Assembly: GCF_003334765.1 (NCBI RefSeq)
Contig: NZ_QOWT01000001.1
Direction: 5' to 3' (one strand)
DNA: 64,000 nucleotides
Origin: Escherichia coli
Lineage (GTDB): Bacteria > Pseudomonadota > Gammaproteobacteria > Enterobacterales > Enterobacteriaceae
Part shown: piece after piece, positions 20,051 through 52,178 of the stretch
Numbering within the stretch: position 1 is the first letter of the stretch
Layout of the letters: every line of letters starts with the position of its first letter
Position numbers and translations under genes: made by a program
The notes under the pieces: model-generated
What the model was told of the DNA's origin: nothing
Databases searched by the model: none
Seen by the model: only the letters and a program-made list of their open reading frames with translations

Positions 20051-22684
20051 TTATTTGGGAAGCGCAGTTCCCCATTCACGCCACTCTTTCGGTTCACTTT
20101 CCTGCAACAGGAAGTGTTTGCCTTCCTGGGCTTTCGGTGCCAGTGGCGTACCCGGAGGCGTGGCGAAGGCGATGCCGCCACGGATAAACTGGTTAAAGGT
20201 GCCGGTTTTCACTACGCCGCCCGTCAGACCAAAGTCCAGACTGTAACCCGATGCCAACCAGAAGACGGAATTGTTACGCACCAGGTGTTGATAGCGTTTA
20301 CTGATGCGCATCGCAATCATCACGCGATCTGACAATGTCCCCAGCGTCATTCCTGTAACCGTACCGACTTCCAGACCACGGAACAGCACAGGCGTACCGA
20401 TGCCTAACGAACCGGCTTCCGGCGCTTCAACAATAATGCTTAAGCCATCCAGGTAACGCGAATCAGTAATGGTGGCCTCTTGTAATTCAAAGTCGCGGCG
20501 AGGATTGCCCCGGCCTGGTTCGACGTTGATATACGGCTGGAGGATAGTATCAAGATGCTCAACGCCAGCTGCCGAAATTTGCGGTGTGACCACTGAGAAG
20601 CGCGTACCACCGCGAGCAAAGGTCTGGACATATTCCGGGTAAAGTACCGCCTTTGCCTGTACTTCATTGCGTGCGGTAATCAGATCCAGCGTCTGGATTT
20701 GCCCGATATCAATACCGAGATAGCGAATTGGCATCCCGACCGCCAGTTTTCCGGCATCGAAAGCGTGAAGCGTAATCTGCCCGCCAACCGCACGGGCCGC
20801 TGTTTCGGAAGCATACAGAATACGCTTATCGCCTTTACGCTGACTGGCGCTGGCACCGCTGAGGTTGTCGAAGCTAATGGCTCCCTTTAATGCTCTGGAG
20901 AGCGGGGATGCCTGTACGGTCAGACCACTACCATTCAGCTGAACTTTCGCCCCGCCTTCTGCCCAGAACACGCTATTGCTGGTCAGAAGGTTGCGATACT
21001 CCGGCTTAATATGCAGATCGATATCAAACGCGTTAGCTCGCGGACGCACGGTAATCACTTCACCAACTTCAAATTTACGGTACAGCACTACCGATCCTGC
21101 CTGCACATCCGGCAGCGTCTCTGCACTCAAACTCACGGTTGTGGTGGGTAAATCGCTAAGGCTGTTCTCCAGCGCTTTTTCCAAATTGGCATACAGTGGA
21201 TAGCTGGCTTTCATCTCACCTTTATCGCCCGGCAGAATACGTATCCCGCCATTGATCCATTCTGAGGCGCTGGCACCGAGAAACTCAACGCCATCCAGCC
21301 CCACCTTCACATCGACACGGCTGTTGACGACAAATTTGCTATCGCCTTTTACCAGTTCGCGATGCTGAGGCTCGATGGCGACGGTAAAGGTGACGCCTTT
21401 GCTGGTGAGTTTACGATCGATAACCTGGCCTACCTGCACGCCGTGAAGAATGAGCGGCTGACCCGCATCAATACCGTAACTTTCCGGCGCGGTCAGGGTC
21501 AGCGTCAGAACATCAGGTTCATGCAGCAGTGCTTTTTCGCCTGGCACAACAACGAACTCTTTGCGTGGCTCGCCATCGCCGGGCACCAGCTCGAAGGTTT
21601 TGCCGGTCAGCAGGGCGCTGAGATTAGCATCGCTAAGGGATAATTTCGGGTTGCGTAATTCGATGCGGGTATTTTCACGAAGCAGGGTAACGACGCTGGG
21701 ATCAACGGTCATTTCCCCTGTGACTTTACCACCAGGATTTAAATCCAGTTTAGTCAGCTGTCCGACTTCCAGCCCCTGATACATTAACGGCGTCGAGTCG
21801 GCGGTTAATCCGGCCCCACTCGGCAGTTCCAGTTTTATTATTACGCCACGCTGGCTGTGGGCCAGATCTTCATACAGACCAAAGGTATCTTCCGCCTCGG
21901 CAGGTTTCGACTCTTCTGGTGAATCGAAGGCAATCGCACCGTTAACCAGTGCCGCCAGGCTTTCCAGTTTCACCTTCGCGCCACTGATACTGACGTTGGC
22001 ATCAACGCCGGAAACGTTCCAGAAACGGCTACCTTTTTTCACCAGATCGGTAAAACGCCGCTCGATCAGGACATCAATCACCACGCCTTGCTTGTTGGGA
22101 TTGATGGCATAGTCGTAGACTTTTCCCACCGGGATCTTGCGGAAATAGACCAATGAACCGCTGTTCAGCGAACCGAGATCGGGGGCTTGCAGGTGGATCA
22201 TCAGATCGCCATTGTCCAGCCGATATTTCGGTTGGGTATCGAGTGCGACAAAGTGATCCTGCTCTTTACCTTTACCCGGCATCATGCCGATATAGTTCCC
22301 ACCGACGAGGGCGTCCAGCCCGGAGACACCTGCCAACGATGCTTTTGGCGTCACCAGCCAGAACTGAGTCTCTTCGCGCAGCGCATCTTTCATATCGGAC
22401 TTGATGCTGACCTTGACTTCAATCTTACGAAGATCGTCGCTGAGGCTGATATCCTGCACTGTTCCGACTTCAACGCCCTGATAACGAACAGGCGTACGGC
22501 CTGGAACAATACCATCCGCCGACATAAAGTCGATGGTGACGGTATTACCCCGGTCCTGATAACTGTCCCAAATCAGCCAACTGGCAATCATTAGCGCGAT
22601 GAACGGCAGCAGCCAGAAAGGTGAGATACGGCGTTTATTTTTAATCTGCGCTTCAGTCGTCGAAGCGGGCGTTTCCTGACTCAT
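20051..22684 (-). CDS. letB: MCE-domain lipophilic envelope-spanning tunnel protein LetB (YebT)
   Basis: ORF-track frame 20051..22726; start placed at ATG 22682-22684 ([28 protein letters not shown]...) giving 877 aa with multiple tandem MCE-like repeats. Confidence 0.9.
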
Positions 22685-45735: not shown

Positions 45736-45761
45736 CCCATTTATGCTGATATAAATTTAAC

Positions 45762-46061
45762 TCAGACCAGTGCTTTTAGTTCTTCCTGCATATATGTTGA
45801 AAAGTATTCAGGATTTTTAATCACAGAACGTTCACCTGTCTCCATTTTTTTTGCCCATCCAACCATTTTTTCCGTGAACCCAGGGTTCCAGCCTTCCTGG
45901 TCAGCTCGCGCCGTAATATCAGCGGCACTCGCGGGTACTCCCAGTTCTTTTAAATATTTAAAGATTCCCTTCGCCGTGCTTTCATTCATCGAACTTGGTG
46001 TTGGCGCTGATACATCCATGGCACCAATGAAATCCAGGGCTTTATCTATTACAGCAGGCAT
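45762..46061 (-). CDS. yoaC: DUF1889 protein YoaC
   Basis: ORF-track frame 45762..46121; start placed at ATG 46059-46061 (MPAVIDKALDFIGAMDVSAP...), which has an AAGGAT RBS 7 nt upstream; 99 aa. Confidence 0.75.
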   Translation of the reverse strand: MPAVIDKALDFIGAMDVSAPTPSSMNESTAKGIFKYLKELGVPASAADITARADQEGWNPGFTEKMVGWAKKMETGERSVIKNPEYFSTYMQEELKALV

Positions 46062-48926: not shown

Positions 48927-49622
48927 ATGCGAATTCTGGCTATCGATACCGCGACAGAGGCCTGCTCTGTCGCCCTGTGGAACGACGGTACTGTCAACGC
49001 TCATTTTGAGCTTTGCCCTCGTGAACATACTCAACGAATCTTACCGATGGTGCAGGATATCCTGACCACCAGCGGAACTTCCCTGACTGATATTAACGCT
49101 CTGGCTTACGGGCGCGGCCCCGGTAGCTTTACTGGCGTGCGCATTGGTATTGGCATCGCGCAAGGGCTGGCGCTTGGCGCGGAATTACCGATGATTGGCG
49201 TCTCCACGCTAATGACGATGGCGCAAGGGGCGTGGCGCAAAAACGGCGCAACCCGCGTGCTGGCAGCCATTGACGCGCGAATGGGCGAAGTTTACTGGGC
49301 CGAATATCAGCGTGATGAAAACGGTATCTGGCACGGTGAAGAAACCGAAGCCGTACTCAAACCCGAAATCGTCCATGAACGAATGCAACAGCTTTCCGGC
49401 GAATGGGTGACGGTAGGGACGGGCTGGCAAGCTTGGCCGGATCTCGGTAAAGAGAGCGGGCTGATTTTGCGCGATGGCGAAGTGTTACTGCCTGCTGCTG
49501 AAGATATGCTGCCGATTGCGTGTCAGATGTTTGCTGAGGGTAAAACGGTGGCGGTGGAACATGCCGAACCGGTTTATTTACGTAACAACGTCGCATGGAA
49601 GAAACTTCCGGGCAAAGAATGA
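48927..49622 (+). CDS. tsaB: tRNA t6A37 threonylcarbamoyltransferase subunit TsaB (YeaZ)
   Basis: ORF 231 aa ([21 protein letters not shown]...). Confidence 0.93.
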
Positions 49623-49661
49623 ATCTTAAGAGTATGCCCTGAGAAAAAAAGGAGTCGCACC

Positions 49662-50243
49662 ATGGCGGTTCAAAAGAATGTTATCAAAGGCATACTGGCA
49701 GGTACGTTTGCGCTAATGCTGAGCGGTTGTGTCACTGTGCCGGACGCCATTAAAGGCAGCAGTCCCACGCCGCAACAAGATTTAGTTCGGGTGATGAGTG
49801 CGCCGCAGCTGTACGTTGGTCAGGAGGCACGCTTTGGTGGCAAAGTGGTTGCGGTACAAAACCAGCAAGGGAAAACTCGCCTGGAAATTGCTACCGTACC
49901 GCTGGACAGCGGAGCCAGACCGACGCTGGGAGAACTTTCTCGCGGTCGCATTTATGCCGATGTGAACGGTTTTCTGGACCCGGTGGATTTCCGTGGACAA
50001 CTGGTTACGGTAGTCGGGCCAATCACTGGTGCGGTTGACGGCAAAATCGGCAATACGCCCTATAAATTTATGGTGATGCAAGTAACGGGTTACAAACGTT
50101 GGCATTTAACCCAGCAGGTGATTATGCCGCCTCAGCCGATTGATCCATGGTTTTATGGCGGTCGTGGCTGGCCCTATGGCTACGGCGGATGGGGCTGGTA
50201 TAATCCCGGCCCCGCGAGAGTACAAACAGTTGTAACTGAATAA
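49662..50243 (+). CDS. yeaY: Slp-family outer-membrane lipoprotein YeaY
   Basis: ORF 193 aa with lipoprotein signal peptide (LSGC lipobox). Confidence 0.88.
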
Positions 50244-50272
50244 TTGCTTGTTTTTAAAGAAAAAGAAACAGC

Positions 50273-50289
50273 GGCTGGTCCGCTGTTTC
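50273..50289. promoter_or_regulatory. FadR operator (distal site) upstream of fadD
   Basis: GGCTGGTCCGCTGTTTC matches the FadR motif CTGGTC-N-G..TGTT; overlaps a hairpin downstream of yeaY. Confidence 0.5.
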
Positions 50290-50358
50290 TGCATTCTTAC
50301 GGTAAAGATAAAAATAAATAGTGACGCGCTTCGCAACCTTTTCGTTGGGTAATTATCA

Positions 50359-50375
50359 AGCTGGTATGATGAGTT
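50359..50375. promoter_or_regulatory. FadR operator (proximal site) upstream of fadD
   Basis: AGCTGGTATGATGAGTT, FadR-like CTGGT...TGAGTT, about 70 nt upstream of fadD start. Confidence 0.5.
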
Positions 50376-50447
50376 AATATTATGTTAACGGCATGTGTAT
50401 CATTTGGGGTTGCGATGACGACGAACACGCATTTTAGAGGTGAAGAA

Positions 50448-52133
50448 TTGAAGAAGGTTTGGCTTAACCGTTATCCCGCGGACGTTCCGACGGAGATCAA
50501 CCCTGACCGTTATCAATCTCTGGTAGATATGTTTGAGCAGTCGGTCGCGCGCTACGCCGATCAACCTGCGTTTGTGAATATGGGGGAGGTAATGACCTTC
50601 CGCAAGCTGGAAGAACGCAGTCGCGCGTTTGCCGCTTATTTGCAACAAGGGTTGGGGCTGAAGAAAGGCGATCGCGTTGCGTTGATGATGCCTAATTTAT
50701 TGCAATATCCGGTGGCGCTGTTTGGCATTTTGCGTGCCGGGATGATCGTCGTAAACGTTAACCCGTTGTATACCCCGCGTGAGCTTGAGCATCAGCTTAA
50801 CGATAGCGGCGCATCGGCGATTGTTATCGTGTCTAACTTTGCTCACACACTGGAAAAAGTGGTTGATAAAACCGCCGTTCAGCACGTAATTCTGACCCGT
50901 ATGGGCGATCAGCTATCTACGGCAAAAGGCACGGTAGTCAATTTCGTTGTTAAATACATCAAGCGTTTGGTGCCGAAATACCATCTGCCAGATGCCATTT
51001 CATTTCGTAGCGCACTGCATAACGGCTACCGGATGCAGTACGTCAAACCCGAACTGGTGCCGGAAGATTTAGCTTTTCTGCAATACACCGGCGGCACCAC
51101 TGGTGTGGCGAAAGGCGCGATGCTGACTCACCGCAATATGCTGGCGAACCTGGAACAGGTTAACGCGACCTATGGTCCGCTGTTGCATCCGGGCAAAGAG
51201 CTGGTGGTGACGGCGCTGCCGCTGTATCACATTTTTGCCCTGACCATTAACTGCCTGCTGTTTATCGAACTGGGTGGGCAGAACCTGCTTATCACTAACC
51301 CGCGCGATATTCCAGGGTTGGTAAAAGAGTTAGCGAAATATCCGTTTACCGCTATCACGGGCGTTAACACCTTGTTCAATGCGTTGCTGAACAATAAAGA
51401 GTTCCAGCAGCTGGATTTCTCCAGTCTGCATCTTTCCGCAGGCGGTGGGATGCCAGTGCAGCAAGTGGTGGCAGAGCGTTGGGTGAAACTGACCGGACAG
51501 TATCTGCTGGAAGGCTATGGCCTTACCGAGTGTGCGCCGCTGGTCAGCGTTAACCCATATGATATTGATTATCATAGTGGTAGCATCGGTTTGCCGGTGC
51601 CGTCGACGGAAGCCAAACTGGTGGATGATGATGATAATGAAGTACCACCAGGTCAACCGGGTGAGCTTTGTGTCAAAGGACCGCAGGTGATGCTGGGTTA
51701 CTGGCAGCGTCCCGATGCTACCGATGAAATCATCAAAAATGGCTGGTTACACACCGGCGACATCGCGGTAATGGATGAAGAAGGATTCCTGCGCATTGTC
51801 GATCGTAAAAAAGACATGATTCTGGTTTCCGGTTTTAACGTCTATCCCAACGAGATTGAAGATGTCGTCATGCAGCATCCTGGCGTACAGGAAGTCGCGG
51901 CTGTTGGCGTACCTTCCGGCTCCAGTGGTGAAGCGGTGAAAATCTTCGTAGTGAAAAAAGATCCATCGCTTACCGAAGAGTCACTGGTGACTTTTTGCCG
52001 CCGTCAGCTCACGGGATACAAAGTACCGAAGCTGGTGGAGTTTCGTGATGAGTTACCGAAATCTAACGTCGGAAAAATTTTGCGACGAGAATTACGTGAC
52101 GAAGCGCGCGGCAAAGTGGACAATAAAGCCTGA
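50448..52133 (+). CDS. fadD: long-chain fatty-acid-CoA ligase
   Basis: ORF-track frame from 50382; annotated-length 561 aa starts at TTG 50448 ([22 protein letters not shown]...); AMP-binding signature [12 protein letters not shown]. Confidence 0.88.
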
Positions 52134-52153
52134 GCGTTAAGTCAGTCGTCAGA

Positions 52154-52178
52154 CGCCGGTTAATCCGGCGTTTTTTTT
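52154..52178 (+). terminator. intrinsic terminator downstream of fadD
   Basis: stem cgccgg/ccggcg followed by T8. Confidence 0.85.

Follow-up and report, generated by a model that had tools for sequence, protein, structure and literature searches.

The yeaY–fadD locus

The DNA analyzed here, termed the window, is a stretch of 64,000 nucleotides from Escherichia coli, which includes the genes tsaB, yeaY, fadD, and rnd. All four are carried by the + strand of the window, which corresponds to the minus strand of the K-12 chromosome. The segment from 49600 to 50700 is matched by all 5,426 complete E. coli genomes and differs from K-12 MG1655 at 2 of 1,101 positions. A window position p corresponds to K-12 coordinate 1889951 + (50243 − p). 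The genes and features on which the argument depends are the following.

49662–50243, + strand: yeaY coding sequence, encoding an Slp-family lipoprotein, the upstream co-oriented gene (ORF list; RefSeq annotation of identical E. coli loci; K-12 b1806)
50264–50290, + strand: yeaY 3' stem-loop, the probable terminator hairpin (inverted repeat, RNA fold, RNAalifold, covariation)
50273–50289, + strand: distal FadR operator, site 2, about −115 to −99 (published EMSA probes)
50288–50299, + strand: yeaY RNA 3' terminus, with peaks at 50295 and 50297 (TRS Supplementary Data 2, 3, and 4 of PMC10687069)
50302–50349, + strand: CRP-cAMP binding region (published EMSA probe, fadD-CRP-site primer of PMC3460868, matched to the window)
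50359–50375, + strand: proximal FadR operator, site 1, −29 to −13 (published EMSA probe, PWM, conservation)
50388, + strand: fadD transcription start site (literature position converted arithmetically, the K-12 TTG at 1889746 being window 50448)
50448–52133, + strand: fadD coding sequence, encoding long-chain-fatty-acid--CoA ligase, TTG start, 561 aa (K-12 b1805, 1888061–1889746, mapped to the window; ORF end 52133)

The fadD start site was placed 60 bp 5' of the start codon (PMC3460868). A mechanical list of open reading frames opens fadD at an ATG at 50382 (583 aa); annotation and literature agree on the TTG at 50448 (561 aa). The longer frame is an ORF-calling artefact, since the published TTG follows a start site at about 50388. 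A promoter-like site returned by a sequence scan at 50374–50403 is likewise at odds with the published start site and was set aside. The fadD CRP site has been described as a Class I site lying between the two FadR sites, with an ArcA site adjoining the distal one (PMC3460868). The CRP region is strongly conserved among the loci compared below, and its likely core, which we infer to be the AGTGA-N6-TCGCA at 50320–50335, would be centered at about −60.5. At the other end of the gene, the sRNA sroD (Rfam RF00370, 115 bits) was found at 52092–52177 on the + strand, overlapping the fadD 3' end and its terminator, where Adams et al. report strong 3' ends at K-12 1888017 and 1888020.

FadR operators upstream of fadD

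Both fadD operators were already known, from work of 1992 and 2012. The names O_D1, at −13/−29, and O_D2, at −99/−115, are presumably those given to them by Black et al. in 1992. FadR is described as a dimer, and the consensus of its operators, aaCTGGTCnGACC(T/A)Gtt, is an imperfect palindrome (PMC9329746). The first-pass annotation of this DNA had proposed that two 17-mers upstream of fadD fit this motif, and that the distal one is part of a perfect stem directly after yeaY. The sequence confirms the positions of all three elements, the proximal 17-mer AGCTGGTATGATGAGTT at 50359–50375, the distal 17-mer GGCTGGTCCGCTGTTTC at 50273–50289, and the stem. The EMSA probes of Feng and Cronan contain both 17-mers verbatim (PMC4259882, PMC3460868); the proximal one is site 1 and the distal one site 2 in PMC3460868, and these numbers are swapped in the 2014 primer table (PMC4259882). 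According to these authors, the sites agree with earlier DNase I footprints (PMC4259882, PMC3460868). In vitro, FadR binding was seen at both sites and was abolished by oleoyl-CoA, the affinity for the distal site being more than 10-fold below that for the proximal one, and the two sites together confer “only modest repression” (PMC3460868). A literature search for a FadR ChIP-exo study found none.

The FadR scoring called for in the annotation was carried out with a position weight matrix (PWM) built from five other published sites only, those of fadL1, fadL2, fadBA, fabA, and fabB. The proximal operator scored 13.7 bits, third among 127,968 window positions, and matches the 17-bp consensus, as had been claimed for both sites. 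For the distal operator the outcome was less clear: it scored 2.3 bits, 129th among the same positions and within the top 0.1%, a low rank that arises because its left half, GGCTGGTCCG, alone resembles the consensus. About 0.4 hits of this score are expected by chance per 200-bp intergenic region when both strands are counted. By sequence alone the distal site is therefore not significant, and its status as a FadR site rests on the published experiments.

The two operators also differ in position. By arithmetic from the start site, the proximal one fills the spacer between the −35 and −10 elements, which fits repression, whereas the distal one (−115 to −99) lies outside the core promoter and start site. 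To compare relatives, one genome per species was scanned with FadD, yielding 80 Enterobacterales loci. In 77 of these a CTGGT-containing 17-mer occupies the proximal operator position, at the same distance from fadD, and 54 of the 77 are AACTGGTACGCTGAGTT, in genera ranging from Citrobacter to Pectobacterium and Yersinia. The proximal site is the main, conserved, and near-universal fadD operator. Apart from the proximal operator, the PWM revealed no conserved FadR site in the intergenic regions of the 80 loci; the third-best intergenic hits in relatives were mostly below 4 bits and their positions were not conserved. Enterobacter sp. 10-1 provides an exception, in that TTCTGGTCTGATAAGAA (7.6 bits) lies immediately 3' of its hairpin, about −154 from the fadD start. 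The loop of that hairpin is CCAGT, without CTGGT, and TTCTGGTCTGATAAGAA may be an independent second FadR site at a similar promoter distance.

Three other FadR-like sequences in the window scored within the range of the proximal operator or above it. The best hit, CTCTGGTCTGACTTCAA at 32028–32044 (+ strand; 17.8 bits), exceeds both fadD sites; it corresponds to minus-strand positions 1908150–1908166 of K-12, about 95 nt past the yebO stop codon in the long intergenic region yebO-yobF/cspC, a site that is not known as a FadR target. The second in the window, CACTGTTCCGACTTCAA at 22457–22473 (+ strand; 15.0 bits), lies in letB just past the letA/letB junction, and the fourth, CACTGGTCTGAGTTAAA at 45756–45772 (− strand; 13.6 bits), lies between yoaC and yoaH, whose ends converge there, both placements having been made by the K-12 coordinate map.

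The hairpin downstream of yeaY

The hairpin begins 21 nt past the yeaY stop codon, which ends at 50243. Its two arms, 50264–50274 and 50280–50290, are 11 nt long and 100% complementary, and enclose the 5-nt loop CTGGT at 50275–50279. The 10-bp stem described in the annotation (gaaacagcgg/ccgctgtttc) thus gains one A-T pair, and six of the resulting 11 pairs are GC. The RNA has a predicted folding energy of −17.2 kcal/mol (z = −5.15), and none of 200 shuffled sequences was as stable. The distal FadR 17-mer is made up of two nucleotides of the 5' arm, the loop, and ten nucleotides of the 3' arm. The 64-kb window contains a single copy of the motif ACAGCGG-N5-CCGCTGT, which speaks against a REP-like repeated element, and a search of Rfam found no known RNA family at the hairpin, its only match being sroD at the fadD 3' end.

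Past the stem, the + strand tail GCATTCTTAC contains four T residues in eight, fewer than a U-rich tract calls for. A scan for terminator-like sequences was positive for the E. coli hairpin on the − strand only, where a clean T-run, TTTTTCTTTAA, lies 3' of the stem; this outcome arises because the U-tract of the + strand has decayed and because the A-rich flank conserved 5' of the stem appears as a T-run on the other strand. With only four T in eight, the E. coli hairpin may terminate inefficiently, or exonucleases may trim the RNA back to it, giving the 3' end.

The annotation had sought a yeaY 3' end at about 50290, and published maps provide one close by. A “Primary” yeaY 3' terminus is listed on the K-12 minus strand at 1889895–1889906, with peaks at 1889899 and 1889897 (PMC10687069), which convert to window positions 50295–50297, 5–7 nt past the last paired base. 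This terminus appears in two sheets of re-analyzed published data (PMC10687069), which by their order are probably the RNAtag-seq of Barsheshet and the Term-seq of Dar and Sorek. The table of RNAtag-seq/Term-seq data from the same study prints the hairpin fold with the yeaY terminus, which also appears in its 3'-UTR table (PMC10687069). The yeaY 3' end is thus already in public 3'-end maps. In the Term-seq tables of Adams et al. no 3' end is called between K-12 1888020 and 1893787, so that detection is dataset-dependent; the TERMITe supplements have no entry for the yeaY–fadD locus, and the TRS lists contain no 3' end at 18899xx on the K-12 plus strand (PMC10687069). Together with the published EMSA binding, these 3'-end maps bear out the proposal that one set of bases has two roles, in a 3' hairpin of yeaY and in a site for FadR. 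The words “terminator” and “hairpin” each occur 0 times in the text of PMC3460868.

Conservation and covariation of the hairpin

The yeaY gene lies upstream of fadD in 79 of the 80 Enterobacterales loci, the intergenic region usually being about 204 nt long, and in almost all 80 a hairpin is found about 20 nt past the yeaY stop codon. In Yersinia, Serratia, Pantoea, Erwinia, Pectobacterium, and others, this hairpin is a canonical GC stem of unrelated sequence followed by a T-run on the + strand. A strict terminator-like scan was positive on the + strand in 63 of the 80 loci, and among Enterobacteriaceae its failures were confined to the clade of E. coli and Citrobacter.

The core ACAGCGG-N5-CCGCTGT aligns without gaps in 53 Enterobacteriaceae, representing 48 distinct sequences, and RNAalifold independently found the same stem as the consensus structure of these 53. 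Stem positions pair in 98.1% of alignment cells, as compared with 39–68% when the 3' partners were slid as a control. Three outer pairs covary, with double compensatory changes of the types GC/CG/UA and AU/GC; cells changed on both sides numbered 26, against 7.7 ± 2.7 in shuffled alignments, and the covariation score was reached by none of 500 shuffles. The standard pairs that depart from Watson-Crick geometry comprise 14 G.U and no A.C on the + strand, an A.C there being a G.U on the − strand. Since the stem is invariant or covarying and its wobbles are of this kind, selection appears to act on RNA of the yeaY strand, and the wobble pattern argues against both a minus-strand RNA and a DNA palindrome as the conserved entity. 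The six inner pairs are invariant over the 48 distinct sequences. Such invariance is uninformative with respect to structure, and could reflect an additional constraint at the DNA level.

No part of the element is less conserved than the loop. The 48 distinct sequences contain 18 different loop pentamers, and identity at the middle position falls to about 30–40%, the stem forming an island of 100% identity. CTGGT is the loop in 8 of the 48, and CTGGTC is found near the hairpin in 10 of the 80 loci; the distal site is accordingly not a conserved one. CTGGT loops are found in Escherichia, Citrobacter amalonaticus, Pluralibacter, a Kosakonia, Phytobacter, Entomohabitans, and one Buttiauxella, while other loops include CTCAG in Enterobacter, CTCGT in Citrobacter youngae, and CTTGT in Raoultella. 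The recurrence of CTGGT in several scattered genera might reflect some selection for the FadR half-site. The fadD sites have been called “largely conserved” in Citrobacter, Klebsiella, and Enterobacter (PMC3460868). As judged from these alignments, that remark is true of the distal site for its stem bases only, and not for the FadR-specific CTGGT.

The tract that follows the stem also varies among genera. Most have five to seven T in eight on the + strand, as compared with three or four in Escherichia and Citrobacter, where the tract has decayed (TGCATTCT, as against TGTTTTTT in Enterobacter). Where Enterobacter has the U-tract TGTTTTTTTACGG, at the positions equivalent to 50291–50299, E. coli has TGCATTCTTACGG and Citrobacter TGCATTAACGTGG. 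This decay might reflect the gain of the ArcA site adjoining the distal FadR site. Within E. coli, the element is nearly invariant, 5052 of 5426 genomes being at least 99% identical over 111 nt.

Interpretation and alternatives

The explanation that accounts best for these observations, and that we hold with considerable confidence, is that the hairpin is the terminator or 3'-end hairpin of yeaY, that the distal operator is a weak and lineage-specific site arising from its loop and 3' arm, and that the proximal operator is the main one. The hairpin, its covariation and strand, the variability of its loop, and the conservation of the proximal operator come from the present analysis, and FadR binding and the mapping of the 3' end come from the literature. 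According to this explanation, the stem-loop at 50264–50290 would work as + strand RNA, either as a terminator of the Rho-independent type or as a hairpin that defines the 3' end of the yeaY transcript, and would be ancestral in Enterobacterales. In E. coli, the loop CTGGT and the first bases of the 3' arm would form, as duplex DNA, one good FadR half-site, CTGGTCCG, and because there is only one, FadR would bind weakly. Repression of fadD would be exerted mainly through the proximal operator, where FadR would block RNA polymerase until long-chain acyl-CoA frees it. The terminator and operator signals need not conflict, because one is read in RNA and the other in duplex DNA. Overlap with the yeaY terminator hairpin would explain why the distal site has a low affinity, is oddly placed, contributes little, and is missing from most relatives. 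Rather than a conserved part of fadD control, the site is most likely auxiliary or fortuitous, weak and confined to certain lineages, and it probably contributes little in vivo. Its overlap with the hairpin looks incidental, or at most weakly recruited.

The alternative that survives best, although we consider it unlikely, concerns how the 3' end is made. In this explanation, the E. coli yeaY terminus is produced by exonuclease trimming back to a protective hairpin, transcription itself ending farther downstream, either in a Rho-dependent manner or after polymerase has read through into the promoter region of fadD. Dar and Sorek are said to have found in 2018 that Rho-dependent transcripts are trimmed to stem-loops, as such an explanation would have it. 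The decay of the U-tract in E. coli and Citrobacter (three or four T in eight, versus five to seven in most other genera), the failure of the strict + strand scan in just this clade among Enterobacteriaceae, and the lack of a called 3' end in the tables of Adams et al. are all consistent with trimming. However, the mapped end lies 5–7 nt past the stem, a normal distance for intrinsic release, and the 11-bp stem with its UUUCU...UUCUU tail may still terminate in part. Furthermore, the U-tract is canonical in the orthologues of most genera, which makes the element a terminator by descent.

A second alternative, which we regard as rather doubtful, holds that E. coli has recruited the distal site as a functional auxiliary operator, at which FadR cooperates with the proximal site, through local concentration or looping, or modulates CRP or ArcA, thereby tightening fadD repression. 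FadR does bind the distal site in vitro and is released by acyl-CoA, the ArcA site adjoins it, the CRP site separates it from the proximal operator, and CTGGT loops recur in several genera. The FadR sites are 86 bp apart center to center, or about 8.2 helical turns. Near-invariance of the element within E. coli (5052/5426) is also what an operator would predict, but is equally explained by the hairpin. Against recruitment stand the more than 10-fold lower affinity, the modest repression despite two sites, and the absence of the distal site from most relatives in which the proximal operator and the same spacing are preserved. Moreover, tetramerization of FadR or looping is not described in the FadR-fadD papers cited here, and a 2022 review, which describes −100 as a “surprising” location for a repressor, notes the want of an in vivo test (PMC9329746).

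A more elaborate proposal, to which we give little credence, is that FadR bound at terminator DNA with a decayed U-tract acts as a fatty-acid-sensitive roadblock or insulator. If this were true, FadR would stop polymerases reading through from yeaY before they reach the fadD promoter when fatty acids are absent, acyl-CoA would release FadR and let read-through add to fadD expression, and the same 17 bp would constitute a regulated terminator-plus-roadblock module. The CTGGT loop and decay of the U-tract showed no association, the loop being present in 3 of 12 distinct sequences with four or fewer T in eight and in 5 of 36 with better tracts.

It is still less probable that the hairpin terminates an antisense or divergent transcript of the − strand, or acts bidirectionally. 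The E. coli consensus scan is positive on that strand only, owing to the T-run TTTTTCTTTAA, and most relatives have an A-rich run ahead of the stem, but ordinary intrinsic terminators commonly carry an A-tract on the 5' side of the stem, where it pairs with the U-tract. No − strand gene or known transcript runs into the hairpin, fadD and yeaY both being on the + strand, and the TRS lists hold no K-12 plus-strand 3' end at 18899xx. Each of the 14 wobbles is a G.U when read on the + strand, and the opposite strand would have an A.C mismatch in its place. A minus-strand terminator was rejected on these grounds, which are the wobbles, the lack of a convergent gene, and the lack of an opposite-strand 3' end.

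Least credible of all is the idea that the inverted repeat is a palindromic binding site for FadR or another regulator and the RNA hairpin incidental; the imperfect palindromy of FadR operators and the invariance of the inner stem would suit it, but it was rejected because the symmetry center of the hairpin (50277) is offset by 4 bp from that of the FadR 17-mer (50281), the 3' arm is unlike a FadR right half-site, G.T is tolerated in 14 cells as a mismatch in a DNA palindrome but a valid pair in RNA, and distant genera have hairpins of unrelated sequence at the same place.

Implications

Control of fadD by FadR through two sites is textbook E. coli biology, so that the discovery value of this analysis is small; the operators and the 3' end were known before, and what is new here is the comparative analysis. 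The comparison suggests a simple reason for the puzzling site near −100, namely that it is a by-product, or a recent recruitment, of the conserved terminator hairpin of yeaY. The stem bases of that hairpin would give the operator its apparent “conservation,” while the FadR-specific bases lie in a freely varying loop. A caution follows for the reconstruction of regulons, in that conservation of a transcription factor site that lies over an RNA structure is not the same as conserved binding.

Comparison with known systems

The two sites are the published fadD operators, as they consist of the same bases and, counted from a start site 60 bp before the TTG, fall at −29/−13 and −115/−99. The yeaY hairpin resembles known intrinsic terminators in being a GC-containing stem-loop shortly past a stop codon with an A-rich 5' flank, in having an RNA 3' end 5–7 nt past a stem that covaries on the transcribed strand, and in the U-tracts of its orthologues. 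It differs in that the U-tract of the E. coli copy is degraded (GCAUUCUUA), such that it fails a simple test for a terminator on its own strand. The lac operon offers a likeness for the arrangement as a whole. There, O3 is an auxiliary upstream operator that overlaps the end of lacI, and the LacI tetramer loops O1 and O3 together. As in lac, fadD has a weak second operator about 90–100 bp upstream of the main one, located on the 3' end of the preceding co-oriented unit. In contrast to LacI, FadR is described as a dimer for which looping is not reported in the FadR-fadD papers cited, and the element that the second operator overlaps at fadD is a 3' UTR terminator hairpin rather than coding sequence.
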